Source of the DNA: Amoebophrya sp. A120 | Taxonomy: Eukaryota > Protista > Dinoflagellata | NCBI GenBank assembly: GCA_905178155.1 | Contig: CAJINV010000014.1 | Coordinates: 124,001 to 188,000 of the forward strand | Reading direction: 5' to 3' | Length of the DNA: 64,000 nt | Shown: positions 326 to 64,000 of the stretch, in pieces | Numbering within the stretch: the first letter of the stretch is position 1 | How the letters are laid out: each line of letters begins with the position of its first letter | Notes under the pieces: generated by a model | What the model saw: the letters and a program-made list of their open reading frames with translations, nothing else | Told to the model about the DNA's origin: nothing | Database searches by the model: none | Made by a program: the position numbers and the translations under genes

Positions 326-3300
326 CGTGCCGCTGTGGTTGTCGCTTAATTTGTACACCGCGGAGTTAATGTTCGCGTCCACGTCACTGCCGATCTGCCG
401 CCCGAAAATCACAAAGCCGGTAATGTGCCGGCTATCAAATTCTGCCTTCCACCACGTGGCTGTTCCTGCGGCTGCAGCGGCCCGAAAGCAAAAGCTGCAG
501 CCATCTTTGATACAGCGTGCCTGCTCGCACGAGGAGTCCCCCATGTTGCAGTCGACATGGTTCCCGAGGTCGAAGAGCATGTTTGGCATATGTCGATACA
601 ACACGTTGACCGGCGCATAGGTAGGATCATCACCCTCCGAGCCAGAGCCATCGTGGCCGCTCGACGTCACCCCGTTCACTAGGTCACCGCCTAGTTTATC
701 CACAGAAAAAAAAACCTCCCCTTCCCCATCCATTTTTTGCATGACAGACGCAGAATTTCATGTATGTTGGATGTGGATGGGTCTTTTTTCCTGGTGGATA
801 TATTTCAAAGCGTGTGGGATCCACAAACTGGCCCGATGTCCCGCTCGGTAGAGTGCCCACCGGTTGCTCTTTATTCTGGCCTTCACACTGCCCATACATC
901 ACCCACGGATCGGTATCTTGCCACACGAAGGGACGGGGCGGGTCAGCCGGTGACCACTTTCCCCGCAGGGCCAAGAAGCCGCCCTCGAGCTCGTTTTTGT
1001 AATGGGATACCTGGGCTTTGACTATCAAAGGCAAAAATATCTGGGTCTGGACGATTCTGGGATTTGTGATGCATATTTTGTATGATCCATGACGCATGTA
1101 ATGTATGATCTAGCATCACAGTTTTTTGGGAGGCTTCCTGATGCCTATTCCGCATGACAAATGACCTCCCCGCATAACACAAACTGGAGTCCTGTTGCTG
1201 GTCACGCAATACACATTTTTTTAGAATTCAAAGACAGCATGACAAGTTGCAATCTTCCAGACCCAGACATTTTTGCAATCCATATTGACGGTTTCGCGAC
1301 AATCGGGAGTCATGCGGGTGGTCATGGCGCCAATGCGCGGCGGTGGTATGGCGTTCTCAAATCGTTACACTTTCAGCTGTTACATAATTTGGCATGCAGA
1401 ACTACGATCAGAGCCGACGCAAGAACCGAGCTTCTTCGCATGGCAAATTCGCGAAACGCCAAACAGGCTTAGAATCTTTGTCAGAGCTGTCATGCAAGAC
1501 GCGTGAGGTCATTCCTTTCACGTTCGCCATTCTTGCATTACAAATTCATGTAACAGATGAGAATGTAACGTTTGAGGACGCCATAGGTGGTACGTGAAGG
1601 GCATGGAAGCGTCAGGATCGAAATCAATAGAATCGAAATGATTATGATTTGTGAAGACGCGGCATACAATCGAAGATGCGACCAGCTGGAGCCTCAGTCC
1701 TCTCCAAGTGGCGCGTGACAAATTCCGGCGCCACCAAAATCGAGTCCGTCGTGCTGTTTGGGCAAAGAAGACTGCTCCTGTCATGCCACTCTGGCAGCGC
1801 ATCGTCTTCCCTTAAACAGGCTTGCAATCGGTCTCATTTGCCTGCTCCCCAACACAGGCCCTACTTTCCCGACATTTAATGCATATGCAAATTTTTCGAC
1901 TTTGTCGATTTCGACCCTGCCACTTCCATAAGGGGCCCAGATTCCGTATTCTTCGTACAGGGGATCAGCCGTGTACATGTGGAAGCCGCAGATAGTGAGT
2001 CCTCCACCACGCCGCCATCTGCGACCCACGTGCAGCTGTTGGGAAATATATATTTTTTTCATATCCGGTGCAAAGATTTCTGGGTCTGGAAGGATGCAAG
2101 GTTTATTTTCATGCACAGTCTGCATGTTGTTGACCCCTGTTGACGTCTGTGATGCATGCCCTAGCATCACAGATTTTATTGTGCGGGCTTCCTCATGTTG
2201 CCTATACCGCATGAGAAATGCCCTCTCGCCGTGACAAACACTGGACCTCTTCATCTGCTGTTCATGCAACACAGACTTTTGTAGTAGTATCGAAATGCAG
2301 CGTCACAAGTTGCAACCTTCCAGACCCAGACATATTTGCATCTGATACTTCACGTTGCGGTTCAGTTGTAGCACTGTCCCTCCGCCTATCACACAAGAAA
2401 AAGCATTAACGTTTTTAACGGTTTTCACAGATTGCATTCCTGCATCACATCAATATCAATTGTAGCCCAATTATAGATACGCATGCTATGCATGACAAAT
2501 TCTGGCACGTTTTGTGATGCAACATTGCTGCATCACAAATTCCGTTAACGTGAAACACTTTTTCCTGTGATACCGCCTTTGGCACCCTTTACGGAGCCGA
2601 GCTGCAAGTAATCTCTGCCCTCCTGCATCAGTGTGTTTTTCGTTAGCTTCCACAGCTCTTTTCCTACCTCTTGTTTGTCAGCCGGATCGGCGCGGAGTTG
2701 CGGATCCAGCCACACGCGGCTGTTGTGCAGACGGTCCGGACAGCAGGAGTCCCGGTTAAAGATATCAAATGCGAATATCGATCTGGGTCTGGGAACTTTT
2801 GATGCAAGAATCGGAAAAATAGTGAGCGCACTGTAACGCGCTGCCCAGCATGTTGACAAGTTTTCTTTCCATGGTTCTGAGTTGCGTGCTCCGGCGCATG
2901 ACAAACTGCGTTCTTGCAGGACAGATCGAAGAGGAACTCTACTTCGCGGCCACGCAGTACAGTGGACCCAAGTAGGAAAAGAAACGAAAAAAACAAAGCG
3001 AAAAGCCACGCAGCCTGCCACAAAAGGCGCGCCGGCTACACAACGAAGGCGCGCGCTGGCCCCTCATTGCTAGCGACCGGACCCTCGGGGCCCGGCGCAA
3101 AAACGGCAAACGCCGAAAATCGGCCGTGTCTGCGAAGGTGTATGCTTGCGAAACACCGAACGCCGCGGGAATTTGGGCCATTGACGCCGAGGAATTCTCG
3201 GATGTGGGATCCTGGGAACTAATTTCTGTAAGTGGCGCGCGTAGGATCTGCATTTCGATCGGTAATGCCGACCTTTGAGATTCTGAAAGAAATCCTTTGA

Positions 3301-6300
3301 GATTCTGAAAGAAATCCATTGAATTTCTTTGAGACTCTAAAAGGGGTCAAGAAGTTCAAAACTTGAAAAGGTCTCGCGGAAACCCCTCTCCGAGACACTT
3401 TGGTGGACCCCTTTGGCGCAACCTTTGTACCCTCGTGATTAAGGTAGTTTGCAAAACCCTTTGCAAGACCCCTTTGCAAACTTTTTTCCGGACACTTTTT
3501 CCGGAAGTTTTCTTCTAGAAGCTGAGTTTTCTAGAAGAAAACGCAGCTTCTTCTTCTAGAAGAAGCTGCGTCCTCTTCTAGAAGAAGACGCGAAGTTTTG
3601 TCTTCTTCTAGAAGGCTGGTCTTCCTGTAGAAGACACAGCTTTGCTTTCTTCTAGAAAACGCAGCTTCTAGAAGAAGTTGCTTCTTCTTCTAGAAGAAGT
3701 TGCTTCTTCTTCTAGAAGAAGCTGCGTCTTCTTCCTAGAAGAAAAAGCTGATCGCTCTGCACATGTGTTCAGGAGCACACTTCTAGAAGGCCAGGAGGAA
3801 AAAGCTGCTGCGCGAGTTTTCTTACCTAATAACACAGCAGAGCGCGTGCGCCTACAGCTTCGGCTTTCGTGCCTCAAAGAAATGCACTCCTGCGATTTGC
3901 GTACTGTGTCTCCAGTCGCCACACTTGCACACACTGATGATCCTCGTGTCCAAGTGAGGCGATTGGAGGCGCAGCACGTAAATCCTGGGAACTAATTTCT
4001 GTAAGTCACCTGCATAAAATTTGTGCCCAGATCGGTATTACCAGCGAGAAGACAAATCTTACGCAGGTAGCTTACATAAATTATTTCCCAGGATCTTCGC
4101 TGCGTCAAGAGTTTCGTGATGCGGCGGAAATCCTGAGAGCTAATATCTGTAACTCACCTGCGTAGGGTTTGTGCTGCAATAGGTCTTGCTGATCAGACCA
4201 CAAATCTTACGCAGGTGACTTGCAGCAGTTTGCTCCCAAGGATTTTCGCCACGTCAAATACTAACTCCTGGGATGTCAGCGCACATCCGAGAACTTCTCG
4301 GATGTGAGCTGACACGCGAGGAATTCCTGAATGTGAGTTCACGCCCGGGAATTCCTCGGATGTGAAGCCCCATCCGAGAAGTTCTCGGATGTGGGATCCT
4401 GGGACCTAATTTCTGTAGGCTGCCTGCGTAACATTTGTGCCGTGGCCAGCAAAACCGATCTGAGCACCAATTTTATTCAGGTGACTCACAGAAATTCGCT
4501 CCCAGGCTTTGCGTGTTACGTCTGCAGTCGCCGCGCTTGGACACGCGGATCGAACTGTCACGCGCAAGGCACCAAAGTTCGCAAGAACAGCCGAAGTGGC
4601 GCGGCAGTTTTATTTCTGGCCCCCCCAAAGTGTTGCGTGCCTATCCCAGGAATCCTGTGATGGGCACACAATGTCAGAAAACCAGAAACAAAATCGCTAC
4701 GCCGGTTCGGCTAAACTTGCGAACCGTCGCGCTCTGCGTGTGAAAGTTTGAACCGCAACTCCAAATGAGGCAATTGGAGGCGCAACACACAAATCCAAAG
4801 AGCGCATTGCTGTAAGTCTCCCGCGTAAGATTATGCTGCGCCGTTCTTCTGACCTGCTAACTCTTGGATGTGCGTTCATAAGTGAGGAGTTCTCGGATGT
4901 GAGCTCGCATCTGAGGAGTTCTCGGATTTGAGTTCGATAGACAGATCGAAGGGGAACTCTACTTCGCGGTCACGCAGTACAGAGTTCAGAGTCTGTCAAA
5001 TGCCGGACCCGCGTGACAAATCTCGCAATCTACTCCCAGAGGACCCAGGCACTACATGATTTGCAGCTGATAATAGAGGTGGACTTGCGAAACGAAGCGA
5101 GTCGATCCATCGGTGAACTCGACGGACCATATAACCCGCTCAGGTGTAGTTACAATCTCAAACGTTACAATAGAGTTTGGAAATCTGTGACGCAAGAGCG
5201 CATGATCTAGCCAACTCTCATAGGATTTCGCATGACAAGTTCCGGAGCCCCAACCCCCACTACAATCTGGTGAAATTTGTATTGCAAAAGGTGGGACGCT
5301 CTGCGAGTCTGTCATGCTCATCATGCAACACAAGAAATGCCAGACTCTATTGTAACGTTTGAGACTGTAACACCTGAGCAGGTTATAGACCACCAGGGGA
5401 GTTTCTCACCCTTTCTTCCATGGGTGTGCGTGCATTGGTTTTTCCATATCCAGGAAAAAACACCCATCCCCATCCATTTTTTGCATGACAAATAGTGGAC
5501 TTCATGCATGTTTTGCATGACAAATTGGATGGGGATGTGTTTTTTCCTGGATATTCCACTTGGTGGAACCGCCAATCGGGTACGCTAAAGCATTTGTCGC
5601 TTTCCCGTCCCATATGAATTGCAAATGTAGTGTCTGGGTCTACTCAAAATGATTGCTGCGCTTTGCTAGTAGAAGATGAAGATGCAGTGTCAGTCTGCTT
5701 GACCCAGAGAGTGCGCCCCGCAAGGGACCTGGTATCGCAGGTCTTGCAACTACGGCTTCTCAGTGCCTGATCCGCACGGAAAGTTGTGCCTTCTTTCGGT
5801 GACAAGAGAAAAAGTCACTTTTGCTGCCCAAGCATGACAGATTTATTTTGATGTGACGAGAACGAGATGCAACTACGCATAACAAGTTCACAGGTTTCCA
5901 GACCCAGACATATTTTCATTCGCTATTCCACTTGTCCGTATCGATTTGCTCCGCATGCAGTTCGCTTCTACTATGGTGCTCGCAAATGTTATATTTTCAG
6001 CTGTTACATGAAATTGTGAGGCAACGACAACGTAAGTGAAAGGGGCAGGCTTGCAACTCTCGCATCATAAATTTGGAACAGATTTCGATGCTGTGTAGCC
6101 CTTCCCCTTGTTCGAGAATTTTTTGTCATGCGACTCGTCTGGCGGCTCGTGTTGCTTTTGCATGATAAAAAGTCATGTAGTAACTACAAATAAGGTATTA
6201 ACAGTTGAGAATTTAACGCTTCAGAGTCTATCACGAGAAAAAAGTGTTACAGTTACGCATTTGTTGGAGTTTCTGCATCACAAATTTTCTCTGTGTGGCA

Positions 6301-9300
6301 ATGCGAAGATCATACGGGAATAAAACAGGAAGGAAACGAGGCTCCCAAGCATTTCTTGCATGAGAAAGGTTGTCTGTGTTGCCGGTCTTGCATAGACTAT
6401 GTGTGTCACTGTAACACTTTTTTCTCATGATAGAATCTGATATTCATCCACTGTATGAATTGCAAAAGCATCGTACTAGTAGTAATTGCATTACAAATAT
6501 ACGCTCGCATGACAAATGAAATTTGTGATGCTGTTCTACCTTGGGATGGAGATTTGTAATGCATAATTGCAATTACTACGAGTACGATACTTTTGCACAG
6601 GATACACTGGCTGATCTACCGATTTCTCCCAGAGGTGGAAACCGCAGATGGTGAGTCCGCCACCTATCCAGGAAAAAACACCCATCCCCATCCAAGTTGT
6701 GATGCAAAACGTGCGCAATTTCCTGTGTTTGTCATGTTGGAAGGCCAAGGGCAGGGCGTCCCATTCGTTTATAAACTTAAAACGGTAGCCACCTACCCAG
6801 CAAACTCTGAGTGGAATAAGCACGGGCAAAGCGATCTCTACCGAGAGACAGTCACAAGAGCTCCTGGGACGGCTGCGGGATGAGCTTTGTAGCATGCATG
6901 CAGAAAATGGATGAGGATCATGGATGTTTTTTTCTGGATACCACCGCGACGTCGCACGTCGAGCCTTTGGGCAACGTAGATCCGCTTCAGTGGCAGCTTT
7001 GGTAGATTCTGAGGCAGGATGATTATCGGACGAAAAAAGTGTTCCACTGTAAGGATTTTGCAGGTTCTGCATGACAAGCTCGTTCTACATGTTGAGAGAG
7101 AAAATTTACCATGCAAGCCTCCTAAGGGAAAACACAGCTAAAAATCCACTTGCTTGCACGTGTAGCAAGACAAATACTTCTGTGGTCCATTTTATGCATC
7201 ACATGTTTACAGAGCACGGTTTTTTCTTGCGATATCGATTTCGGTTCCGCCGCTACCCCGTCGTCTCCCTCCACGTCGGCGTCGTCTGCCACCGTCGGAC
7301 GCTACATTCCCGAGCGGCCAAAAGTCCTCGTCCCTCGTAAGCTGGGTATTATCTGGACCGGTTCCGGAGGCCTTACCAGGTACAGACTCGATGCTCTGAA
7401 TCGTCTCATATAGCTGAGTATCAACTGCAAATATGTCTGGGCCTGGAAGATTGCCAGCATTGTCGTGCGTATTTTGGTGCACGAGCCCTGATGCCTGTAA
7501 TGCAGCGCCTAGCATCGCAGATTTTCAGAGGGCTTCCTGATGCCTACTCGTCTGCATGAGAAATGCCCTCTCCGTGTAGAACAAACTGGTCAACTACATG
7601 CAATACCAATAATTAAAAGATTTTGTTCGAATCCGAAGACAGCATCACAAGCTACAACGTTCCAGACCCAGATCGATATTTGCAAGGCATACTGTTTTCC
7701 AATTTCGTGGTTGTTGTTTGAAGTGAGTGGCGGATCCAGAAACACATACGCATTGTTGAGTCGCTCCGGACAACAACCGTCTCGATTCCACAGTTTCAGC
7801 TTCGTGGTCCAATGCGGCCTGCCATCGGTAAACTCGACGCGCCACCAGGGAAGTGCATTATCAGCCGACCTTCCGTGCGTGTGCGAGCACCGGTTTTTCC
7901 ATTTTGTTGAGGCTCCAGACACGTAGGTCAACGGCCTGCCCTTGTAACCGCCGTGCGAGGTGCTTATCTGCTGCGCAGACAACAAATTCGGCGTGACCCG
8001 TGTCTCCGTGATGCCCTGAATATGCTCTACCCAATCATCGCGCGTCCAGGACGCCAAAAGTGTCGCCATTGGGACGGGCGGTAGTTGGCGTTGCAGGACA
8101 GTTATCGTCTTCGCTGGGGCGTACAGGTGGGCCCCACAGATGCGGAGGGCGTCCGTACACGCTTCATCCGAAGCCGGGCACCGGTAGGCGCCGGTGGCAC
8201 CGTCGCGGTCTGTTTCTCCGGTGATGTATACGCGTCGCACAGGCTGCTTTTGTGCCAAAGCCTCTTGGTCCAAGTAGAGCATCTTCCCGCCGGCGCTACC
8301 GGCTGGCACGTCCTATCAAATGTAAAAATGTCTGGGTCTGGAAGATTGCGAGATTTGGCATGCACGTTTTGCATGGGCCATGATGTCTGTGATGCATGCC
8401 CTAGCATCACAGACTTTTTGAGGGCTTCGTGATTCCTATTCCGCATGACAAATGCCCTCTCCGCGTAGCCAAAATTGCATTACTTTTGCTGGTCATGTGT
8501 ATCAGTGGGGACGGAGCCCCCGTACTGTACGGGGCCCCCAGTACAAACAGGCACCTGCAAACAAATTATGCTATTGGAAAACAGCCGAAGTCTGCATTTT
8601 TTATACAAACGCATGGGCCGCCAAAGGTACCCGTTCGCACCGTACAGGGTTACCAAATACACAGGCCCGGCTGGAAACTCCGGAGGCCCCGCGATTAACA
8701 GGTCGGTCCCTTTTGTACAGGACCCAACTCTGCATGGCGACTATCTAAACACCGCGCACTGCCACTGCGCCGGCCCGTCGCCACTAAATCTACAGGCCTT
8801 TGTGAGCACGACGCCGCCATAGCCAAGCACGTCGCTCGCCTAGATAATTACCCTTGCCCCTCTTTGAAGCTATTTTGCCCTCACTGCCCCGCCCTGCTCT
8901 GCAGCGCCCGCGTTCCCACTCACATCAAGTCGCGCGCGCGCGCGCTATCCACTCACATCTTCCAGCCCTGACCTCATCTCTTTTTTCGCTATTTTCTATA
9001 CAAATCCGTGCTCGGAGGTGCCCGGTTGCACAGGACCGTCCGTATTCTCTTTTCTACAATTTCAGTCTTTCTTTGTACACTTTTCGTGTTTACTCATGTA
9101 CATTTTTTGTATAAGAGGGCCCGGACCGTCAGGGGTACCCGTTTGTACAGGTTCACATGCAATACAGATTTTTTTGGAATCCAAATGCAGCGTCACAGGT
9201 TCGGATTCTTCCAGACCCAGACATTTTTACATTTGATACGTCCCCCAACTTCACGTAGTCCTTGCCCTCTTCCATGTGTCCGCCCTTATACAGCGCGTAT

Positions 9301-12300
9301 AGCTCTGTCTATCAAATGCAGAAATGTCTGGGTCTGGAAGATTGCGAGATTTGTCATGCTGATCTGGCATGGCCCTTAAATCTGTATTGCGTGGCCACAA
9401 AAAGCCTCTCTCGCCTGTCGTGCAAAAACGCAGTTTCTCATGCGGAATATGCAGCACAGAAGCACGAAGCAACTTGTCATGCTTGGCGGCGCATTACAGT
9501 GCATTTGTATATTGACTGACTTGCGTCACAAGTTTCCAGACCCAGACATTTTTGCAATCCATACTTTCCCGATGTCAGCATAAAAAATCGGGTTGGATTA
9601 TCGTACGGAAAAATCTCCCCGCCTCCCCAGAACGGCGTGGTGATGCTGATTTGTGAACACAGTTTTATTGTCTTGCGCACAAGGCAAAGGGCAGGGGCAC
9701 CCATGTCGTGGCGCATTGGACAGCGAATCTGTCACGCGCTTTCGCCTATGTCAGGCTTGTTTCTCATGCTTAGCCGCCAGCCGGATACGTTCGTACCCAA
9801 AAAATGGGCTTAGAATTATATGCCGGCAAGCTCTTGTTGCAGCTGGAATATTACAGAGTTCATTTGTGTACACAATCACAAATCCAGCAACTACAACACT
9901 AACTGTATTTTGTTGATTTGAGTATACAATAATAAATATTATGGGGTGGGGGCTTTTTATTTTTTCACTGTTATATATCCAAGAGAAAAACTGTGTTAGT
10001 GTAACTTCTATCTTTGGCTGACAGCTTTACAAATTTGCTCTACATATACAGAGAAAACCTGTCACGCATGGCTTGTAAGGGAAATGGAAAACACACATGA
10101 AAAGAGAACTGCATGGGTGTCTCGCATGACAGGTGTAAGTCTGTTGCATGTTGTGCATTACAGATTTACACTTAATACACAGTTTTTTTTCTCTTGCATA
10201 TGATATGGATTCGTCCGCCTGGATCGGCGGGTCGAGCCAGATATGAACTGCAAAAGTATCGTACTAGTAGTAATTGCAATAGCTCAGCATGACGAATGGA
10301 ATTTGTCATGCTGTTTTGCCTTGGGATGGAGATTTGTAATGCATGGCTGCGATTACTACGAGTACGATACTTTTGCACAGGATACCAGACGGTGCCGCCG
10401 TTTGGTATGGCGCTCCTTAGCGTTACACTCTCAACTGTTGCATGAATTTGTAATGCAAGAATAGCACAGGTGAGACTGAGAGGGAGACGAGAGCCTTGCG
10501 CGTCTTGCATTACAGATTTGGCGCGGGCGGTTCTAGTGCTATTTAGGATTAGGCCTCCGAGCCTTTGTCATGCGAGGCAGCTTCATCGTCATCATGTAGG
10601 GGACACCCGCACGACCCAGCGCCACAGGTCAAGGATCGCTTTTCCGGGGGGTGGGCGAGGAAGCACTTTCGGCGACCTCATCATACAAAAAAAAGCCGTC
10701 TGGTGGCTCATGGTCATTTTGCATGACAAATCGTGTAAACACTTGAGAATGTAACGTCGTTTGAGAACCCCATACTCAGTCCAGCGTCGCCTTCGGTTGC
10801 GGGCTGATTGAAGAGGTGAAGGCGAGAGACGTAGTGCTTTTTTCTATCTTGGAACTCGACTCGCCACCAGTTGAGCCCATTCTCCGGCTTTTCACCAGTA
10901 GCGCTGGAATACTCGGTCTTCATGCAGGACGACGACGTGTCGTCGCCCAGCGTGTAATTTAGGGGTTTTTTGGGTCCGTGTAGCGCGGTGTTTCCGCCGG
11001 CAACACTGGACTGCGATGCGCCGAGCAAGTCCAGTGGAACCCGAGCCAAGGGGTCCAGCGTCTCGGCGGGCCCAAACAGTTGCACCCCGCAGATTTGCAA
11101 TGCTTTAGCTTCATTACTGGTCCCATGCGTCACGTACACACGCTTCACGGGCTGCTTCGCTGCCATCGCCCCCTGGTCCAGAGAAATGGGAAGGCTTGCG
11201 TGGCCGTTCGCGGGAATAGTGCCGAACTTGAAGTTACTAAGGGGAAAATTTCACAAATACAAAGATCTGCAAAAGTTGATGTTTAAAGGACAAAACTGCA
11301 GAGAAGCAGGCGCCCAGTTTTATGCTTTTCAGCAATTCAGGCCCTGTCGGGCATCCTTGGGAGGGGCGCCAGAGCATTCATCTCAGGCGGTCGCCATTTA
11401 ACCCGACCAAAGTCGCACCAGCGCGGGCCGCCTAGCAGGGCGGCACTAGGGCTCTTGGGGCCGCGCCATGGTGCCCGGAACTCCGGCGCCATGCGGCGCA
11501 TGCGGAGGCAGTAATAGGTCGCGGCGAATCGCCGAAAGGGGAAAATCGCATCAAAATGACGCAGAAAAATGCTCGCGGGCGACCTCTCCGGCAGGGGTCG
11601 CCGGACCCCCCTGCCTTTTCATTTGTGGAAAGTTACCAAGCGGGAATTGGGAGTTTGGTTGTTCCGAAGGGCCCCAGATCTTGGGGTCTCCGGAGGGGTC
11701 GGGTCTGTTCATTTGTGGAAAGTTACCAAGTGGGAATAGCGTTTTTTTGCTCCAATCACGAGCTAAACGACAAACCGCATCGGCGGATTCGACGAAAAGG
11801 AAAGGAAGCAGCCTTCTGATTTTGTTGTTGAAGTACATGCATGCTCGTGGTCGTCCGGTATGGCCTCCAGCGACGCCAAACCCTCCGGACCTTGCCGGAC
11901 AGAAGAACGCCGCGCACTGTTGCTGTGCTGCTGTTCGACTCGCCGGCGTTGCGTTTCGCAGACCCTGGACCCCCTCCCAGCAGCCCTGAACCCTCTAAAG
12001 GCCAATTTTTGCAGATATTTGTATTTGTGAAATTTTCCACTCAGTAGAAGTAGTCCCGGTGCTCCACGAGGTTGAAGTTTTTGGGGTTTTGGAGCAGCGA
12101 ATACAGTCGCAGACCGATCTTCGCGTAATCGGACTCTTCCTCCTCGTTGACATCTTCTGGCATAGGTGGATCCAGCCAAATTACGCCGTTGTTCAGACCC
12201 TGTGTTGACCAGCCAGATGCCGGGACAACTTCGCTGTTGACCAGGCGCAATTGGGAGATATGTAACGGGTTCACCGTATTCTGAGTAAAAACGTCCCCAC

Positions 12301-15300
12301 CCCAGAGTTGTCTGTCATGCAATTCTGCACGCCAAAAAAGTTTCTCATGCGGAGCCCTATGAGAAGCATTGCCCATTCGTGTTTTGGAATTTGTGATGCT
12401 AGAATCAGCACGCTATGCTTGATCTGTGATGCTTGTGAACTAGCTAAACAGGATTACACTACGAGGACAGATTTGTCATGCCAGACAACCAAGGCTGGCT
12501 GATTTGTCTAGGAGATTTCCCATCTTGACCCTGGTGTGGGGACGTTTTTAATCAAGATACACCGCGCCGCTATCGTCAGGCTTTGCCTCAACCCGCCACC
12601 AGTTCAGCGTGCTGACGCCATCACTTATGGAAGCGCCAGGATTGAAATCGTCAAAGTTGAAATGATTTGTCATGCATAAAATGGATGCCAGTTGGAACCC
12701 AGTTTTCAAGTGGCGCATGACAAATTTTGGTGGTCCCTGAATCCAGTTTGTCATGCTGTTTAGGCAAAGAAGACTGATTGTCTCATGCTACTTTAGCAGC
12801 TCGATCTCTAACCCCAAACAGACTCACAATCGGCCCCACTTGCCTGCTCTGCAACACACGCACCTCGGGCCATGCATTTTATGCATTACAAATTATTTCA
12901 ACTTTGACGATTTCAAACCTGACGCTCCCATATCACTAGTTTCTTGCGTAAAAACGCAGGTCAAGTGATCTTCGGCTGTGTATCAAATGTAGTAAAAGTG
13001 TCTGGGTCTGGAAGGTGGTAACTTGTGATGCTGTCTCTGGATTCCAAAAAAATCTGTGTTGCATGACTAGCAAAAGGACTCCAGTTATTTGTGCTACACG
13101 GGGAGGGCTTCTGTCATGCGGAATAAGCATCAGGAAGCCTTCTAAAAATCTGGGATGCTAGGGCATGCATCACAGGCGTTATTGGTCATGATGCAAAACA
13201 TGCATGACAAGCCTGGCAATCTTCCAGACCCAGACACTTTTACATTTCATACTGTGTACTCCGTCGACATTCCGATTTCATACTCGAGGACTTTCTCCTA
13301 TGGAAACGTCAGGATTGAAATCGTCAATGTTGAAATAATAGTTTGCCATGCATAAAATGCAGCCCACACAGTGCCTCTCTTGGAGAGTAGGCAAGTGAGG
13401 CAGATTGTAAGTCTGTTGAGGGGCAGAAACTGAGCTGCTAAAGTAGCATCACAAAGGGCGCCTTCCTTACCCAAACAGCATGACAGACTGGGTTTCGGCT
13501 CTATCCAAATTTGTCATGCGCCACTTGGAAACTGGGTCACACTCACAACTTTCATCCATTTTATGCATTGCAAGTTATTTCAACTTTGTCGACTTCAATC
13601 CTGACACTTCCATATCTCCGCCGTGTTTGACGATCCCGCAGCTTCCGCCGTGTTTATCTGGGCAGCAGCAAGATTGGCCTTTGGAATTCGAATATCCTGC
13701 GCAAAGGTAGTAGTACCGGCGCAGTCCTCGCCCTTTCTTCTTGATGTAACAACAACAAGAGCTCCGCATTTACAAATTTGTCAAGATGATCCTGAACGAA
13801 CATATTCAAATAAAACTCTGAGTTTTATTATTATTCCTGATGCAATCACTACTACGCAAGTGTATTTACAGCTTTTGCAATGCATATCGAATTCTGAATT
13901 GCAAAAATGTCTGGGTCTGGAAGATTGCGAGATTTGTCATGCTTGTCTGGCATGACCAAAAAGTTTGTGATGCGTGTCGAAGAAGAGACCCTTTTGCCTG
14001 TGATGCAAAAACGCAGTTTGTCATGCGAAAAACGCAACACAAAGAAGCGCAGATATTTATTTCTCATGCTTGCCTGCGCATTACAGAGCATTCACTATTC
14101 CCAACGCAGCATTACAAGTTTCCAGACCCAGACATTTTTACATTTGATACGAATGTTCCGATAGCTGGGCCCGGCCGCCGGGCTCGACGAGGTGCGCCAG
14201 TCGGTGTCACCTCCCCCGTGCTATGCATTTTTGCAGAAGTATCTTCGCACTTCTATATAGAAATCGTAATCGCATGACGAATTTCCTCAGCATGTTGAAA
14301 ACAAAATTTGTAATTATGCTGGTTTAACATCATTACCTTAAGAATTGGATTTGTCACGCACCATGCCTACGAATACAACTACACCTACTGCGAGTACAAT
14401 AGTACTTTTGCAAGAATGCATACGTGCAGCCCACAGTTGTCCTGCTTCACGTCCTTGCCCGTGTAATACGTCATACCGCTGCACTCGGCTATGGATTGCA
14501 AAAGTGTCTGGGTCTGGAAGAGTCTAAACTTGTCATGCAGGTGGTTTTCCATGCCCCCTGAGGTCTGGAATGCCGCACCTAGCATGACAGAGTATGTGAT
14601 GTCTCTGCCATGCCTATCCCGCATGAGAAACACTCGCCCAACTTGGTCGAAAGTCAAAGTGGACAGCTTTTGGCACTCATCGTTCGTTCGTATGGATCGG
14701 CTCTGCCGACCGGGTGACCCATCGCCTTGCATATAAATGACCGACATAGGCGATCCCCGTTGCGGGACATACATATGGCCGCACGGAAGGGCCCTAAGCG
14801 CTACATACATAGTTCACCCTAGCGCCTACCACTTCGGTCGGGGCACTCATGCAGCACAGATTTTCGCAGCAATCGGGTTTAGCATGACAAGTTGCAAGAA
14901 CCTTCCAGACCCCGACATAATTGCAGTCCATATCGGCGACGTCGGCACAAAACCCGAGGCATTCGTGGAAAGTTTTCAGCCCACCAACGAGATTGCCGCC
15001 CTCCGTGCCGGGCGATGCCTGCAGCCGCGGCGCCTCGCATGTCGTTTCTGGCTGGATCACACAGTCCTCATACAGTTTGTAGTTGAGTGCTGGCGTTCCT
15101 CCACTACCAGCTTGGTGCCCACTCCCGGCAGCGCCATCATCTGTCGTCCACCAATCAGTACTGGCGTAGAAGTTTACGCCGCATATGCTCAAGGTGTTCT
15201 TGTTCGGGGGACCAACTATGTACAAGTACCGGAACGGCCGCTTGGATGTAAGCAGGCTCAGAGTCACTTCGTGCCCTCCTATCGCATTAGAACCGTCCAT

Positions 15301-26524: not shown

Positions 26525-26525
26525 A

Positions 26526-54141: not shown

Positions 54142-56582
54142 CTTCACGTTGGTACCAGTGGCCCTCCTTTTGGTGCTTTTGGCTGGGCGAGGTGGGAGAA
54201 ACGTTTTACTCCTGAAATGGTCGGCGCCGACTCGTCGGCCTGGCTGGCGGTCGGACGGCGGCACAACCTCAACAACCAAAGAAGCCTTTATTCGCGGATG
54301 TTGATGATGCAAAAGGTCATCTGTCCGGCGGCGCGGAGGGAACAAGTCGACGACCCGACGTCGGCCACCGCCTCTAGTACGTCGACTCTTGCAATATTTT
54401 TCACCGAAAAAAAATATTTGTTTTCTGTACTGTTCTCGTGAGGTTGACGGAAAGTATGAGGGCCAGCAAGTACTTCTAGAACCGGATGCGTTCTTTCGTC
54501 GTGGCGGAGGTTCGGCTCCTCGTGCTCCTAGACGATGTGCAGAGGAAGACGAAGAGAGAGTTTCCGAGAAAAAAACTCCATAATTTCCCTGCATGATGCT
54601 CGCCGCAGCGGGTAAGGTGCTCCAGAAGTCGTAGACGTTGAGGGCCACGTCGTCCTTACTTCCCGAGGGATCCTCCTGCCGACCGGTCTCTCCTCGCGCG
54701 CAACTTGGTGTTGTATCATCTTCCTGCATCCGCAGGCGACCGGAAGTCCGACAAAAAAAAGGAGAACACAAGAAAAGAAGGTGCTCCTGAGTGGTTCTTT
54801 CGGGTTTCAACTGAGCCTTATTTATTGTGCGGCGGGGGCGGTCCCACGGAGGATGAGAAACAAGTACTTATCGCGGTCCTCGCCACGAGGAATCATCGCC
54901 GCTGCCAGGAGATTCTGTTCAGGGCCCCAAGTGGACGTCTCCAGGGTCAGCGACGACCTTGCTATGATCTAGGCGACCTCGAGCAATAGCAATACTATGT
55001 CGACGCCACAACTACACGACCACCTTGAAGTTGTGCATCATGGCATATTGGCACGACTCCGATCAATCGACGTCGTGCTGCAGGCCGTGTCCCTGCTAGT
55101 CGAGTAGATGAAACCCGGAGCAAGCCGAATGGTCATTTTCAATTTCAACGCATTTTTCCGTTTCATGAGCATCGCACACTTTATTTATTTCTTTTTTTTG
55201 TTTGGTGCTGTATCCAAATAAATTTTCCAAAAAGTAGGTCCCTTTTCCTTTTCCCGCTTTGTGCATCGAAAAAAGCGGCATTTGAATTTGATTTTTTGTT
55301 TCTAGTATTAATTTTAATTGATCCATCGCCAAGATTCTGGCTCATCTTCATCTTTCGTTCAGTTGAAGAAAGAAACGCAAACATTAAACCAGACCCACGA
55401 GGACGTCGACGTCGAGCAAACATTGTGAAATTTGAACCTCCGACGTTGTAGACGTCCGTCAACAAAATCAATAACGTGGGCCTGGGCATCAAGCTCCTCC
55501 TGGAACACGTTTACTGCAAAGAGAGGCGCTAATATTAAGTAGAAGAATCGCGGGACAGACGACAGAGACTCTCTTGTCGTGCGAGATTCATTCCTGAAGA
55601 TGATTCTTTACTTGTTCTTTATCCAGAAGGTCCAGTGTTCTCTAGGAGCATAAGCATATTCACCTACCCTCCAGCCTGTTCATGCGCAACGACAACAAGA
55701 GACCTGTCGAACATTGAGGGGTTCTTGTTCAACAAGTGTGCTCGTCCTGCTGAGGGTCGGCGTGACCACGACGAGGAGTTCTTGTGTCGTAGGAGCTAGG
55801 CGCTTGTTTTTAGGTCTCATCCAACTATCAAAATCTAGCGGCCTATTTGTTCATTTTCAATATCTATGATTGGTATATAGCACCATCTCTTTTTTCATTT
55901 TTCTCGTCACCAGGGGTTCAAGTTCATGCTCGGCATGAATGTTGACCAGGATTATACTCGATTCTATTATACAAGCGGCACATTATTGTTTGCTAAAAAA
56001 ACATAAAAAGGCTATAAGACATCTGTAATCGTCATGTTTCTTTTTTCACGAAAAACGTTTCAATACTACGCATCTTCAAGCAGGATCTCAGCATCCTCAA
56101 GCGTCTAGGTGGTAGTTGACTGCTGTCCATCCTGATCTTTAACTTTGGAAAGGTTTTTGCGGGTGCTTTTTAAAAAAAATGAGGAGGTATTTGAATTTGT
56201 CCAAAAGAAAAAAACTAAAGACGGTTTGCTCGAGCTCGTCCTCGTCGCTCTTGTTTCTGTGCGACTTTGCTTTAGATAAAATCTTCTTTTTTCATGATCT
56301 TTATAAAGTTCTTTACTTCGTAACTTCTTGTATGTTGCTTTTTCTTTTATTTTGGTGTCCCTTTTCGAAACAGATGCAGTAGCTGTTTAGATAGAACTGG
56401 CATGTATTTTGCACCAGCATGATGGCACTAGCGAGTTCGTTCCCGCTGCTCTCATCTTCCGATCCCCGATGCAGTTGCACCCAGCCCAGGGGTTGTACTT
56501 CCAACGGACAGTGGTAGAAGTAAGTACTACTGTGGTCCTGCAATCACTGCAAAGTGCATTTCCATTTCCTACCAGCACCTTG

Positions 56583-59500
56583 TCAGACGCTGCCAGAATC
56601 GGTGTCCTGCTGTAGGGTCGTGCGTCCAAAGACAATCACAGGAAAAAGCTGGTTGTTCGTCCCTCTGATCCTGTGACGCAGAGAAGGTGTCAAGGATAAT
56701 TCTGTCTTGCTAGGAATACGCGACATGACTGAATTTTCTGTAGTGCCGGCGTTTATTTCGTCCACCCGAGGTGGACGCACAAATGGCAGACTGTGTCTGG
56801 TGTCTTCATGCAAAGTTGCAAGCTTCACAACATGTACTGTACATGGTGCGCCGAGTTGTATTCTAGTCCAAATAAAGCATCACGGAGGTGCCAAAGAACA
56901 AACACTTTCTTCCCACGATCGGATACAGGCTGCCAGCTCGGTAATGCGGAGCTGCCTTGTCAGCTGTTCGGCTGTCCCGCTGGGCAGCATGATCCACACC
57001 CATCTGGCCTCTCCAGCGTATGAAGTTGTTCTCGAACGTTACATAGATCGCTGTTACTTACATGTGCGTAAATACTGTTATAGCAAAACCAATACCAAAC
57101 GCGAAAGCAGAGAACTTGTCGTGCGAAGTTGCTTGAAGATTTTTATGTGAAGGCTGTGGCTGTTCCAGTTCCTGCTTGTCGTAATTTTGCATGACAAATC
57201 ATCTAGCAGCGATGAGTCTAACTCTCGAGAACACCATACGACGGGTGGGTCGCAGATCACGCGTGGCAGGTTATCCAAGAAAAAACGTGTGTAAGTGTAA
57301 CTTTGACTTTCTTGGAGGAAAAGCAACACAAATGTGAGGACTCTGCATGACACAGAGAAAACCTCTCATGCGCGGCTAGTATCAGTGAAAACACGACGAC
57401 GACGGACGGAACAAACCTCTGATGCACGTCCAGCATGACAGGTGTAAGTGTCTTCCATCCTCTGCAACACAGATTTACACTTTTACAGATTTTTTCCTCA
57501 CGATACACGTGCACCGCGGCGTACGTGTCATCGTAGAATATGAGAGCTCACAACTGATGCGCCACCTCCCCCTCGTTTGTCATGCAAGATACCAAATAAG
57601 CCGCTTCCTGCCTTCTAGCAGCTCCACCGTTTTCATGTTCCGGAATGTTGACCCTCGTCCCGGGCGGTGCTTCACTCCACGCGCGAACAAGAACTCATCG
57701 TGCTGCACAAGCTCCATGTAGAAGTTGGAACTAGTTGTACTTCTATTAGTTACTATTCTTGATCGCTGGTCTACTACCTCCTGGGAAGCGTTTTTACTTT
57801 AAGAAATGCAGAACGAGGGGGAGTAGTAAGTTCTAGTTGCGCGCTCCTCTCATATAGAAGTGATTGGGGGCAAAAGCCGAGTTGTCGACTTCATTGGCGG
57901 GATATCAAGTGTAAAAATGTCTGGGTCTGGAAGATTCTGAACTTGTGATGCTATCTTTGGATTCTAAAAAGATTTGTATTGCATGACCAGCACCAAGAGG
58001 ACTCCACTCTGTGCTACGCGGAGAGGACATTTGTCATGCGGTACAGGCATCGCAAAGCGCTCGAAAAATCTGCGATGCTAGAGCATGCATCACAGACATC
58101 ATTGGTCATTCAAAATATGCATGACAAACCTGGCAATCTTCCATACCCAGACATTTTTACATTTGATACGGGATTCCCGGGACTTGCTGGGATGTCTTTC
58201 GCCAAGGTCGCAGCGGCCATTTCTTCGGGGCCGATGGTGCCGCAGGTGTGCATGCCGTTCGTGCCGTCCGGAACCAGGCACTTTCCGGTAATCTGATTGC
58301 AAGGCGGTGTAACCGCGGTGCTCACCCCGACGACGGCGCCGCACCCGTTTGTCGCTTGCGTAAAGTCCGGCGTGGTCCTATCCTGAGCAAAAACACCCCT
58401 ACGACCCATGAAAAACAAATTCAGAAGTTTTGGGAATCACGCATGACATAAACAGACTGTGCTACTGCGGATATGGGAATCACGCATGACAAGTTTTTCT
58501 TTGTATTAGTATTGTGGTGCAGGTTACTAGCAAGGAAACCCGCATCACAAAGCCATCTCCTTACAGTCCTAGTATTTACAGCAACATTATAAATGCTAAA
58601 GCATGAAGATACATAGGAAATGGCTCTCATGGGGATGCACATTACAAGTCTTCCTGTCTTTGCAACTCTTTATGACAAGTCTGGTGTGGGGAGGCTTTTA
58701 CTCAGAATAGCCCCCGACTTTTCCAAGGTCCACGTCCGGGGTGCAGTCGCAGTGACCCGCTGCGCCGGTAGGTGCGTTATGGAAGCGTCAGTATTTAAAT
58801 CATCAAAGTTGAAATAGTTTGTCATGCATAAAATGCGATACAAAAGTGACTCTATTGCAGAGGACCCACGGGAGGCAGATTATAGCCCTGGTAAGGGTCA
58901 AGTAGAGTTGGACTGCTAACTAGCATGACAGAAGGCAGCTCCTTTTCCCTAAACCGCATGACAGACGCGCTTCCAGGACCGGGAAAATTTGTCATGCACC
59001 GACTACAAACTGTAGGTCTAACTGGTATGCGTTTTAATTATGCATGACAAACTATTTCAACTTTGACGATTTCAAACCTGGCACATCCATATGCGTCCTG
59101 TTCGGAGTTGTCGCTTTTGTCAAGCATTTTCCACTGGGCGCCGTCCTTCTTGCAGACCATGTTCTCCGTACTGTCATCGCACGTCGAGTCACTCTGGACG
59201 TCGAGCTGGAGCAGCATAGTTTGGGGCACGCAATTTTGGGAAGTGGTGAGGTGTAGGTAATAGTCGGTCAGGGCGGGGTCTGTCCGGTACTTGTACAATC
59301 CCGGCGACTATGCATTGCAAAAGTATCGTACTCGTATAAATGCATTACAAATTTCCTCAGCATGAGAAATGAAATTTGTAATGCAGATTTGCCTTGGGAA
59401 CAAGATTTGTAATGCGAGATTCGCATTTATACGAGTATCAGATACTTTTGCACAGGATAGCGACACTAGCGCAAACTCCCCCGTTTTATCCGGATACACG

Positions 59501-62500
59501 TCAATGTACTCGACGCGCGAGACGCATGGAAGCGTCAGGATCGAAATCGTCAAAGTTGTCATGCATAAAATGCAACCCACAAATAAATGCCTGTCTTGCA
59601 GAGTAGGCAAGGAAGGCAGATTGCAAGCCTGTTGCGCGGTAGAAATAGAGCTGCTACAGCTAGCATGACAAAAGGCGTCTTCCTTACCCAAACAGCATCA
59701 CAAACTGGACTGCGGCTCTACCCAAGTCTGTCATGCGCCACTTGGAAACTACTTAGGCGCCAAATGGTGTCCGTTTATGCATCAACTTTGCCGATTTCGA
59801 TCCTGACGCTTCCATAAGACGTGCGAAAACTCAGCCACCAGCCACGGGTTCTGGTTGGGGACACCCTCGAACAGTCGGCGTACTTGCCGTCTACCGCTAT
59901 GGGAAAGCCGCCGCGGTTATGCACTGCAAATCCAAATAAGTCTGGGTTTGCAAATAACTTGTGATGCTAGTTTGTGAATTATCGGGGGGCGCAGGCACAC
60001 TGCATGACGCACCTACGCATAACAACTTTTTGAGCTCCTACTTACTTTATGTGTTTCGCTTTCCGCATGGCAGACTGCGTCTTTATTGCATGACAGGCAA
60101 GAGGATTTATTTATATTTTCTCTGCTCATGCGTATACAGATTTGAAAGAAGTCGTGGGAGAGAAGCATGACAAACTTGCACTCACTTTCCAAACCCGGAC
60201 ATATTTGATTTGCCCCTTTGGTAGCGGTTCCTGTCGAACGCATTGCTCGGGCTGTGGTCGTATCCTGTGCAAAAGCATCGCACTCGTATTGCAATCATGC
60301 ATTACAAATCTTTTTCTTAAGGCAAATCCCCATTACAAATTTCATTTCTCACGCTGAGGAAATTTGTAATGCATTTATACGAGTGCGATACTTTTGCAGT
60401 TCATAGGTCGTCGATGTAATCGTTGGGAAAGCCGTCCAAAATCTTGGCCTTCAGCGTGTCGTGGTGGTGCGCGTGCTTGACATGCAGCTCCACCAGGCCG
60501 GTCAGTCCGCACATTTGTGCATCCTTGGCAATCTCCGCGCTGGTGCAGCCCGAGCCTACTGCGTTGTATCTGCCCTCTGCGTAATTTATCCCACAGAAAA
60601 ATAAAACTGGCAGGGCATATTTGTTGTATGTAATGCAAAAATAAATACACAGAAAAATCTGTCATGAGCGGCCTCGTAGCGTGCTGTTTAGGATACGCAG
60701 TACTGATTTTTTTGTGTATTTATTTTTGCATTACAAATGTGACCTGCCAGCTTGAGCTTTTTTCTGTGGGATATAATTCTCCACGGGCGTCGGTGTCATG
60801 CCGTTGGGGTCGCGATCCGGGGCGGCGTCGAGGATTGCTTGGTGTTGGGCGTTAAATTCGGCATCCTTTTCATCCCGCAGCTCGTCCGCTTTTTTGGCGA
60901 TTTCCACATTGCCGTCGACTGCCGCGATATGGGAGTGTCAGGATTGAAATCGTCAAAGTTGAAAATGAAATAGTTTGTCACGCATAGAATCGATAAGTAC
61001 CAGTTGGAAGCCCAATTTCCAAGCGGTATGCATGACAAATCTCGGCACCGTCTAAATCCAGTTTGTCATGCTGTTTAGGGACAGAAGGCGTCTTTTGCCA
61101 TGCTACTTTAGCAGCTCTACTACCGCAGACCCCAAACAGGCTGACAGTTGTCGGCCTCACTTGCCATCCCTGCAAGAGAGGCACTTCATGCGGCCTTGCA
61201 ATTTATGCATGACAAATCATTTTTTCAACTTTGTCGATTTCAAACCTGACAGTTCCATACGCGAGGCTAGATCCGTACACCACTACCTCGCGCAATTGCA
61301 GGGCCCGCGGAATAGTGACCGCTTCCGATTTCATGTGCGGTAGCTCGAGGAACACGTACTTGCCGATAGCACCGTGGCAGTCGATGTTGATGCGGTAGTA
61401 GGTATCCACCGGGGTCCCGGAATCGTCCTCGACCTGCATCTCGACCAGGGTCTCCATCGGCTCGTTAAACACCATGCCTTTGTTTTCGGCGTCTTGCGTT
61501 GCCGCGTCCTGCTCCTGCTTGGTTAAAACGTGGTCGGGGTTCTTCACGTCCAACCCAGGCATGGTGGACCCCTCCCAGCGCTTGGTGCCGCACAGTGTGT
61601 ATGCAAGAAAAAAACTGTGTAAGTGTAACTCTGTAATGCAGAACAGCCAACAGAGTTACGCCTGTCATGCCAGACAGCCATGGCTTTCTCTTTTCCTGTG
61701 TGTTTTCCCTTACGGGCCACGCATGACAGGTTTTCTCTGTCATGTAGAGGAAATTTGTGATGCTGTCAGCCAAAGAAAGTTACACTAACACAGTTTTTTC
61801 TTGGATAGTGTGTACTTTCCGCGTAATACGGTGTCCCCGCCCCACGTGCTGTTATCGTTCCACACCTCCTTCGTGTCGTGCACCGTCTCCTGACGGAAAC
61901 TGGTGCGAGCGACAGTGTTCGTCGTGTTCTTGATATCGTTCGGGTGGGGCCGGTATGCATAGGAAATATGTCTTGGTCTGGAAGAACGAATGGACCTTGT
62001 GATGCTACCCTTCGACCATGCAAAAACCTGTATTGCAGGAGCAGCAAATTAATAAAGACACGGACATGCTTGCCACCCGGAGCAGGGCACTTCACATGCA
62101 GGACAGGCATGGGCCAGCTTTATTTGGAAAAGCTGTGATGCTACTAAAGCTTGCATCACTTCACAGACATTGCAGCGGGTGGTCGTGTACAAGCTGCATG
62201 AAAAGCTTCCAGACCAAGACTATATATTTGAATTTGATAGCAGGTCACAGGCAATGGCTTTCTCGTCGCCGTTGCCGATAAATTTCCGACAGGGTGCCCC
62301 GCCCGCGCCAGTTTCACCGAAGTTCGCGTCCGGTTATGAATTGCAAAAGTATCGTACTCGTATAAATCTAAATGCATGACAAATTCCCTCCGCATGAGAA
62401 AAAAAAAATGTCATGCGGATTTACCTTGGGAAGAAAACTTGTAATGCATGATTGCAAATACCACGAGTACGATACTTTTGCACATGATACCGATTTCACG

Positions 62501-63709
62501 CCGACAACAAGGTAGGCGTCGTCCACATTGTCCTCATAGGTTCCGTTCACTGCGCGGTCTTGCAGAGGATCCGTCACAATGGACAAATCCTGCTCCCCGT
62601 CGGGAGCTGTATGGCCTTCTCAACTGTTACATTCTCAACTGTTACATGGATTTGTCATGCAAAAGCACCATTATCATCCTCACGATCAAGCTGCTCCGCA
62701 TGACAAATCTGCGGAGGGCTAAATAGCACTATAATCCGTCCCAAATCTGTAATGCAAAAGGCGCAATCTTCCTCCTTTCACTATTGCCCTTCTTGCATTG
62801 CAAATTCGTGTAATAGTTGAGAATGTATACATTTGAGAACGCCATAAGCTGCGCGGCAGGCGTTGAGGTCCGTCCAGGTGAACAGGGAGGCGACGCCGCA
62901 TTTTTTATTGTGAGGAAAAATCTCCCCTCCCCATATTGAAAGCGCATCCTTCTGAAAATTTGCAATGCAGATTTGTGACCACAAATCCTGTCTGTCTTGC
63001 AAGAAGGCGAATCCTGAGAGTCCGCCGCATTATGCAGGCGGTTTGTGATGCTCTTGGGCTACTTAAAGCCTAGAGATTTGGCATGCTAGGTGCCCACGTC
63101 AAAGCCTCTGGGCAGCTCAGGCTTGGCATATGCCTGCAGTCCTCTACTGCAGCACAAATCTGATTTGTGTACGGAAATCCAGCAGCAGAAATTTCGTTCT
63201 GATATGTTGGGGAGGTGGGACTTTTCCTTTTGATACTTTTTGGGACTCAAGGTGAGGAGCTGCACCTCCACGACCACCATGGGAGAGCCCGTCAGTTCCA
63301 GCTGCCACCAAGCGCGGGGAAAGGCCGCACCAACCGCGGGCGCGCCGGAAAACATATGAGAGTGCACAACTCCACCCCCTCCCCCTCATTTGTCATGTAA
63401 AACCCCAAATCCAAGTGCTTCTCTGTGGCACTGTTTGCATGACAAATTCTGAAAGCCCAACCAGTACGACACTAGGCACATGAATTTGTCATGCACAGGC
63501 TCCACGTGTGGGTGTGCTGGTGTCTGTATTGCTGTTCATGCAATACAAATGAGGGGGAGGGGGGGTTGTGCATTTTCATAAAACAACGCGCCGGCGCTGA
63601 AGGGGTAGTTGGTGGAGAAATATCCCGAATTCACTTCCTCAATAATTTGCAATACCGTATTCCCAATCTTCTGAATGGTCGGCTGCGACTTTTGGTCCAT
63701 GCCCCTGTT
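56583..63709 (-). CDS. Gene 4 (5'-partial, 20 TIR introns): tandem paralog of gene 3
   Basis: GYFSTNYPFSAGALF|SGAPAVGAAFPRAWWQLELTGSPMVVVEVQLLTLSPKK|CGVASLFTW, RALQLREVVVYG and RWVWIMLPSGTAEQLTRQLRITELAA|(F)GRTTLQQDTDSGSV* all align with gene 3. Confidence 0.85.
56634..56925. mobile_element. Highly decayed TIR intron (E-like)
   Basis: aatcacagg..cggata; DR aagac/caggc; frame matches the paralog. Confidence 0.65.
57019..57238. mobile_element. TIR intron family C (diverged)
   Basis: DR cagcg/cgacg. Confidence 0.78.
57272..57505. mobile_element. TIR intron family E
   Basis: DR caggt/cacgt. Confidence 0.87.
57539..57854. mobile_element. TIR intron family H
   Basis: DR tagaa. Confidence 0.83.
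57903..58168. mobile_element. TIR intron family A
   Basis: DR cggga. Confidence 0.9.
58379..58709. mobile_element. TIR intron family F
   Basis: DR ggtcc/gcccc. Confidence 0.83.
58778..59091. mobile_element. TIR intron family B
   Basis: DR tgcgt. Confidence 0.9.
59309..59459. mobile_element. TIR intron family D
   Basis: DR gcgac. Confidence 0.9.
59525..59816. mobile_element. TIR intron family B
   Basis: cat...ata; DR agacg. Confidence 0.88.
59918..60223. mobile_element. TIR intron family A (diverged)
   Basis: tat...gta; DR gcggt. Confidence 0.8.
60261..60405. mobile_element. TIR intron family D
   Basis: DR ggtcg. Confidence 0.9.
60587..60773. mobile_element. TIR intron, E-like
   Basis: tatcccacagaaaaa..tttttctgtgggata; DR taatt. 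Confidence 0.88.
60928..61259. mobile_element. TIR intron family B
   Basis: DR cgcga. Confidence 0.9.
61600..61807. mobile_element. TIR intron family E
   Basis: DR gtgtg. Confidence 0.9.
61954..62239. mobile_element. TIR intron family A
   Basis: DR gccgg/gcagg. Confidence 0.85.
62335..62489. mobile_element. TIR intron family D
   Basis: DR ccggt/ccgat. Confidence 0.9.
62610..62846. mobile_element. TIR intron family C
   Basis: DR agctg. Confidence 0.9.
62906..63235. mobile_element. TIR intron family F
   Basis: DR ttttt/ctttt; exons join as SPKK|CGVASL. Confidence 0.85.
63355..63580. mobile_element. TIR intron family H
   Basis: DR aaaca. Confidence 0.9.
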
Positions 63710-64000
63710 TATGCATTGCAAACATGATACGACGTCCTGGGCCTGGAAGTAGAATGCGAGACTTCTTGTCATGCGAGTTGTCTAGCGCGACACTGAGCTC
63801 TGTCTTGCGTGGACAGCAAGAGCTTCTCTTGTCTGTCATGCGAGAACTACGCTGTTTGTCATGCGGAATACGCAACTACACGGAACCTCCACGAAAAAAT
63901 CTGTCATGCTTAGCGGCGCATGAGAGTATGCTTTTCATCACGACTGATATGCATCACAAGTTTCCAGACCCAACACCAGACATAAGTATTTGCAATGGAT
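63710..64000. mobile_element. TIR intron family A (cut by the window end)
   Basis: tatgcattgcaaa..tttgcaatggat. Confidence 0.82.

Follow-up and report, generated by a model that had tools for sequence, protein, structure and literature searches.

The window analyzed here is a stretch of 64,000 nucleotides from Amoebophrya sp. A120 (assembly GCA_905178155.1, contig CAJINV010000014.1, positions 124,001 to 188,000), in which minus-strand genes carry many short elements with TAT...ATA ends. These elements share an internal motif, GCAT(G/C/T)ACA(A/G)A, which was first pointed out in a sequence-only reading of this DNA. Here we surveyed the distribution, conservation and spacing of this motif and the removal of the elements from a transcript-like contig. 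The features needed first are listed below, with terminal inverted repeat abbreviated as TIR and target site duplication as TSD.

697..64000: TAT...ATA TIR elements (n = 96), mostly 100-350 bp, with a 5-bp target duplication
218..63909: motif GCAT(G/C/T)ACA(A/G)A, 160 strict copies, all within elements or element fragments
26529..43612, minus strand: host gene region; a 3640-nt transcript-like contig follows the gene
23997..25339: TAT...ATA element of 1343 bp with near-perfect TIR and 5-bp TSD, no strict motif, and a degenerate copy near nucleotide 35 of each end

The elements were delimited by a search for TAT...ATA ends together with a TIR and a 5-bp TSD, which gave 73 candidates in the window against 0, 1 and 0 in three shuffles; the candidate at 46138-47911 was dropped as a GC-rich chance pair. 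Degenerate and nested copies were added through family profiles to reach 95 elements, and the element at 28997-30684 later became the 96th. The groups (A1/A2/A3, B, C, D, E, F, G, H, J and singletons) are our own and not the nine families of the sequence-only reading, and element N (2387-2572) and the partial fragments were delimited only after the motif matches had been seen. TAT was found at 30/30 family ends and A at nucleotides 11-15 in 20-28 of these 30, while the TSD matched at 5/5 positions in 62/93 elements and at 4/5 in 21/93; TGT was present at one end in only three window copies. These ends fit the introners of Amoebophrya sp. A120, which have TAT, seven variable bases, an A-run and short direct repeats. 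The elements occur in both orientations within minus-strand genes, and long minus-strand reading frames are restored once each element and one TSD are removed, for example 611 aa across 23 elements. Contigs identical to the window are present in the DNA run X1, and because 44,371 contigs of that run map onto the first 18 kb of the window the element families are taken to be abundant genome-wide.

The strict motif was matched 160 times (82 on the plus and 78 on the minus strand). Element bodies, 24.7 kb in all, contain 153 of the matches and partial fragments of elements (1.1 kb) the other 7; neither the 13.9 kb of nested foreign inserts nor the remaining 24.3 kb of DNA (about 38 kb together, including intergenic DNA) contains any, which confirms the observation of the sequence-only reading. 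Dinucleotide shuffles of the element bodies gave a mean of 0.95 and a maximum of 6 strict matches (200 shuffles), and base composition was rejected as the cause of the excess on that mean. At least one strict copy was present in 75/95 elements and 15/16 groups, the exception being the group of the 1.3-kb element at 23997-25339. With a looser weight matrix the elements were found to carry 398 sites, about 4 per element, and other DNA 25. Among all 9-mers, GCATGACAA and GCATCACAA occur in the largest number of groups (11/13, with A1-A3 pooled). The motif had also been described as lying in both orientations, often in close inverted pairs; this is right overall, with tail-to-tail pairs at 17-19 bp in A1, A3 and N and head-to-head pairs at 15 bp in C and H, but it is not universal, as E carries one orientation only and F, with three window copies, only the other one scored at family level.

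A scan of a metagenome collection provided 147 further loci, all of one assembly (contigs JACKZZ01..., about 0.51 Mb distinct), which is placed among alveolates by an Rpb1 search (best hit 86%) and, as it may be of the same strain as the window, is counted here as extra copies and not as an independent lineage. This second assembly holds 404 further elements, 372 of them in 15 clusters and mostly of the same families as in the window; 952 strict matches lie in element DNA. Some of its strict copies, often 33 bp apart, stand without a recognizable TIR (L012 7104-7146, L049 4650-4692, L055 2397-2439, L022 2515-2722), and these may be decayed or unmodeled elements or cases of local motif retention. 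A tandem-motif scan of viral contigs gave two near-identical AT-rich matches without elements, which were judged to be chance.

Conservation and spacing of the motif

Divergence from the family consensus is 10.3% at the seven core positions of the motif, 13.2% in the TIR arms and 21.6% in the non-CpG flanks, so the core is about half as diverged as the bases next to it, and CpG decay is rejected as the source of this gap. With a leave-one-out consensus the core was better kept than the rest in 77/77 copies of the eight largest groups, and the same was true of 353/360 copies in the second assembly.

Simple recent descent of all families from one element is ruled out as the reason for the sharing. 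Local alignment scores are about 14-43 across families and mostly 50-340 within them (in the columns printed), and most families do not align end to end; with the motif masked, only 14/91 consensus pairs rise above z 3, led by A1/A2/A3 (26-66), D-J (17) and F-L (7). Non-motif identity is slightly above expectation in 7/7 cross-family pairs tested (z 1.2-2.8), and on such sequence comparison a deep common ancestry of the element families appears likely. The TIRs had been called unrelated, which is only partly right: TAT and the A-run at nucleotides 11-15 are found on all ends, the arms of D and J are related (z 17), and the long TIR of A, B, D and G includes the first motif copy.

The further proposal that outer arms are interchangeable found no clear support. 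A1 and A2 have the same arm with different interiors, and the second-assembly families c12 and c13 retain most of the site layout of C and H at about 55% identity elsewhere; among the families compared, no two combined unrelated arms with an interior that was clearly shared. These patterns of arm and interior are explained equally well if the families diverged slowly from a common ancestor.

The layout of the sites is given below for one example of each of ten families, as position within the element and strand.

36816..37077: family A1, sites 41-, 73-, 91+, 130+, 184+, 215+ (steps of 32, 18, 39, 54 and 31 bp)
9310..9563: family A2, A1 arm with other interior, sites 41-, 72-, 105-, 125-, 164-, 214+
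12626..12932: family B, sites 41-, 90+, 122-, 154-, 258+ (41 from the right end)
59309..59459: family C, sites 34+, 52+, 67-, 98-, the outermost copies facing inward
53150..53385: family D, sites 42-, 89+, 137-, 186+ (42 from the right end)
5447..5553: family E, sites 37+, 69+, on the same strand and 32 bp apart
12277..12559: family F, sites 35-, 65-, 114-, 147-, 196-
63355..63580: family G, sites 35-, 83+, 131-, 169-, 186+ (32 from the right end)
61600..61807: family H in reverse orientation, sites 45+, 63+, 78-, 138+, 169+
5130..5387: family J, arm related to D, sites 55-, 101+, 147-, 179-, 196+

Each family entered the spacing tests with a single set of consensus sites. In 11/13 families two copies on the same strand lie 31-33 bp apart, compared with a maximum of 8 for any 3-bp window under random placement (5000 trials). 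Distances cluster at 17-19 and 46-50 bp between tail-to-tail copies and at 15, 32-33, 46-48 and 64 bp between head-to-head ones. Same-strand pairs fit a period of 10.5 bp best (p 0.0003 at this value, 0.04 over a scan of 8-20), and tail-to-tail pairs one of 10.5-10.75 bp (p 0.003 over the scan). When all sites were fitted to a single helix face with the deeper consensus of the second assembly, the peak was at 10.25-10.5 bp (p < 1/1500), and p = 0.0007 was obtained after the same-strand pairs at 30-34 bp had been left out. The outermost copy mostly begins 31-34 or 39-43 bp from the element end; 18/20 outward sites within 60 bp of an end lie at 31-34, 39-43 or 54-55 bp, phased at 10.5 bp (p 0.003). 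Within families the spacing of 31-33 bp is already altered in 7-60% of copies.

This spacing rule is the new element of the analysis; the elements themselves are published, and subterminal binding repeats are a known device. A literature search over openly available text found no published account of the motif or of its spacing, nor does the motif string occur in the 14 supplement files of PMC12130899.

Removal of elements from a transcript-like contig

The 3640-nt contig that follows the host gene comes from run X8; it is presumed to be RNA, with zero depth over most of the intronic 29.2-33.7 kb. All 30/30 elements between 27265 and 43398 are missing from it, each at its length + 5 (six of six intervals), and this removal occurs without GT-AG. 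On the transcript strand the informative joints are consistent with a cut one base before TAT and four after ATA. Of the removed elements, seven lack the strict motif; a strong site is missing from the transcript strand in two and from the opposite strand in seven, and in one the motif array is split by 3.3 kb; all 30 retain at least one strong site on some strand. Four cases are given here.

28997..30684: family E element that holds a nested insert and whose TSD has drifted completely; 1693 nt are removed (joint 28992-30686, one base before TAT and four after ATA)
28701..28872: family C copy with zero strict motifs, nevertheless removed (skip of 177)
35206..35545: family B copy with one strong site and none on the transcript strand, nevertheless removed (skip of 345)
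36457..36775: degenerate A1 copy with core divergence of 34%, its removal deduced from exon-length arithmetic

The motif in its strict form is thus shown to be dispensable for removal from this contig. A drifted TSD was taken as the mark of an older insertion, and window copies with drifted TSDs had a core divergence higher by 0.083 (95% confidence interval, CI, 0.024-0.151), with +0.048 at other positions and +0.001 at TAT. The two copies of the TSD differ at 9.5% of sites, so that drift since insertion would be about 5-9% per copy, which is near the core divergence. On the transcript strand 93/93 elements have the same 5' TA, partly through the way elements were selected.

These results go against an excision factor, one of the roles first suggested for the motif, since motif-poor elements were removed with the others and the motif decays in older insertions. 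The idea can be restated as an RNA signal for which one or more degenerate copies on either strand suffice; each removed element does keep a strong site on some strand, and the motif persists in second-assembly DNA without a recognizable TIR. We still hold it to be very unlikely, as the strict copy is missing from 7 of the 30 and the strong site from one or other strand in the 2 and 7 cases above, the elements lie in both gene orientations, a phase of 10.5 bp indicates double-stranded DNA, and it is the motif, not the invariant 5' TA, that decays as copies age.

A folding code had been offered as well, in which inverted copies pair and zip the RNA, or single-stranded DNA, into a long hairpin. 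Although 116/289 strong sites are predicted to pair with another copy, partner sites show no covariation, with 1798 matches observed and 1798.3 under permutation. The transcript strand is not biased towards G-U either (132/1784 against 143/1807), in a test without a positive control as the arms are equally null. No motif-motif pairing is predicted in E and F, and pairing requires complementarity and not one fixed sequence across families, so we give this reading hardly any weight.

Two further observations concern transcripts. A micro-exon of 7 nt lies at 30889-30900 between two adjacent introners, both of which are skipped by the X8 contig. The element ends at 8314, 14845, 12277 and 5526 are joined to other flanks in raw RNA reads of X5 and X7 (69-216 reads); according to these reads some elements elsewhere are retained in transcripts. 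The exons of 1-18000 were not covered by runs X5-X7, nor those of 26000-45200 by X7, which says nothing for or against expression.

A candidate binding site and its precedents

Because it is kept in family templates, decays in settled copies, is free in orientation and is phased like B-DNA, we infer that the motif is a site on double-stranded DNA used during element copying. On the sequence evidence we rather favor a putative helically phased binding site of one shared mobilizing protein, which would probably be a transposase. The sequence-only reading had likewise proposed a site for a shared trans-acting factor; one conserved site across families that do not align is indeed best read as the site of a DNA-acting factor, while no transposase was seen in the Pfam scans described below. 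In the mechanism that we propose, copies of the protein would sit on a single face of the B-DNA, starting some 30-40 bp inward of each end, the bound protein would unite both TAT ends, and a DDE-type enzyme would insert the element with a 5-bp stagger; an integrase-like DDE enzyme is suggested by the 5-bp TSD together with the TA ends. Only elements whose array is good would serve as templates for new copies, by which the consensus would hold motif and spacing and single insertions could lose both freely. Splicing would use the element ends instead of the motif.

We tentatively suggest, as a possibility that goes further, that one protein may move every introner family here, reading only the phased GCATGACAAA lattice and the TAT end and leaving the arms free to diverge. 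Jumping and splicing might then depend on separable codes, the first on a DNA lattice and the second on a signal at the ends, and the mover might be an unrecognized integrase-like or host-derived protein, which would be the reason that no transposase has been found so far. Introners make up about 17% of the A120 assembly, and a shared phased site would make their families one system. The motif could serve as a bait for protein pull-down and as a signature for locating a master element, and in introns that do not follow the GT-AG rule it would help to tell the signal for jumping from that for splicing.

A host DNA-binding or chromatin protein, and not a transposase, could also bind the phased array, so that carriers transpose or persist better and the enzymes are possibly arm-specific. 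Such a helper would leave the same pattern in sequence as the shared mobilizing protein, the arms vary by family as would suit family-specific enzymes with one common helper, and no transposase was found here or by Farhat et al. The motif is however absent from the 38 kb of non-element window DNA, intergenic DNA included, and hence is no common host site, and the shared TAT end, A-run and 5-bp TSD suggest one type of enzyme. We therefore regard the host protein as unlikely.

Several observations weigh against the shared mobilizing protein. The families are related and not independent samples, so that the p-values of the spacing tests overstate independence. Head-to-head pairs favor 8 or 16 bp (scan p 0.095), and a period of 16.25 bp is nearly tied in the 10-lineage set (0.467 against 0.481), being clearly behind in the 14-cluster set (0.351 against 0.522). 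The phasing from the ends weakens by 100 bp (p = 0.07) and is not seen for inward sites. Insertions and deletions are not clearly fewer in the 31-33 bp segments, at 0.062 per 10 bp, than in other inter-site segments, at 0.070, a comparison without an off-lattice control. The contrast with insertion age is weak in the second assembly (core +0.014, CI -0.003 to 0.030; other positions +0.019), where neutral decay and constraint are not separable, and 50 strict matches of that assembly lie outside recognized elements, some paired at 33 bp, without explanation. Neither the window nor the approximately 0.5 Mb of second assembly yielded a transposase or an autonomous partner. Farhat et al. 2021 (PMC7789003, in the part drawn on here) found no transposase in A120 and, partly for this reason, excluded general mobilization by a transposase.

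The 16.25-bp period also bears on a relic of deep common descent, in which all families go back to one ancestor that arose through duplication of a unit some 16 or 31 bp long, both motif and spacing being inherited and not imposed by a present-day protein. This fits the competitive 16.25-bp period, the kinship of D with J and of F with L, and the weak excess of non-motif identity in all seven pairs, but it leaves unexplained why the motif is conserved twofold over its neighbors within every family. Moreover, with 7-60% of copies altering the 31-33 bp spacing, survival of the spacing past the point of alignability would need selection, and we judge such a relic improbable.

The mobilizer was searched for in 298 Pfam scans of open reading frames (ORFs), some scanned twice, which covered 16 window ORFs, 137 of the 204 filtered second-assembly ORFs of at least 190 aa and 145 open stretches (75 aa or longer) from long elements and from nested inserts; they gave no transposase or integrase. 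Long TIR-TSD pairs in the second assembly were rejected as autonomous candidates, being nested inserts or apparent chance pairs. The element at 23997-25339 gave no Pfam domain, and no similar copy of it was present among the fetched second-assembly loci. One second-assembly ORF (L017:378-1877) has a C-5 cytosine DNA methylase domain (Pfam E 1.7e-37).

Among known systems, hAT elements make TSDs of 8 bp, unmatched by the 5 bp of the window elements. The comparisons that follow rest on parts of the papers cited. In IS1535, dimers of the transposase nucleate on 9-bp repeats that lie in helical phase 20-60 bp away from the end, with terminal sequence playing a minor role, and hAT elements have subterminal repeats of variable orientation (PMC6188088); Lemi1 binds repeats of Emigrant, a miniature inverted-repeat transposable element (PMC1636448). 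The window elements are like IS607/IS1535, hAT and Emigrant in having short repeats inside their ends that are conserved above their flanks, with helical phasing as in IS1535. They are unlike them in that one motif spans more than 10 families with diverged arms and that the elements act as introns, and they have TIRs and 5-bp TSDs, whereas IS607 has neither (PMC6188088). The A120 introners of PMC7789003 resemble the window elements in their TAT-start inverted repeat, seven variable bases, A-run, short direct repeats, many families and non-GT-AG removal; that paper, in the part drawn on here, describes no common internal motif or spacing rule and speaks of families without a family-specific inverted-repeat motif.

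For the enzyme, the A120 family fam38 (Gozashti et al. 2025, PMC12130899; data from 38 of the 58 A120 rows of supplementary file 8) is a TIR DNA element with a 5-bp TSD and TA/TA termini, and its TIR of 49-53 bp is about that of the window elements including the first motif copy. It differs in its length of 810 bp and its Copia/Gypsy integrase-like homology, the comparison being one of listed features and not of sequence. Ginger2/Tdd elements have long TIRs, and TDD-4/5 have 5-bp TSDs, as in the window, whereas Ginger termini are TGTNR and not TAT (PMC2836005). IS3EU elements have long TIRs, and the fungal ones end in TAYGG..CCRTA, matching the TATGG..CCATA of families B and D; their TSD is 6 bp (PMC12730594), against the 5 bp found here with removal at length + 5.

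Other repeats and genes of the window

Two paralogous multi-domain genes lie on the minus strand at 63.7-57.8 kb and 43.6-26.5 kb. A further minus-strand gene at 17-0.3 kb has repeated WWRVEF-type modules, which we take to resemble F-type lectin domains, without Pfam support in the ORF scan.

A second repeat family, whose members share their ends and have a GC-rich hairpin close to one of them, was found at 45149-50752 and 37722-38588 of the window and at 775-1571 of second-assembly locus L019; it is nested in TAT introners in 3/3 cases seen and gave no Pfam domain. Kilobase inserts in introners at 2915-4985 and 40270-41520 are bordered by long stretches of element sequence in direct repeat, which measure 43 bp at 2920/4940 and about 65 bp near 40197/41523 (the latter by eye). 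A repeat of 163 bp at 15-177 and 14680-14842 is 97.5% identical between its copies, and the second copy sits in an A3 element. A small repeat of about 60-100 bp is nested in D and G elements beside ATC runs (10592-10695, 31638-31700 and 44594-44648, and L026 6433-6537). Within the 3.3-kb insert of a G element there is an inverted repeat of 714 bp (84% identity) at 31851-33710.

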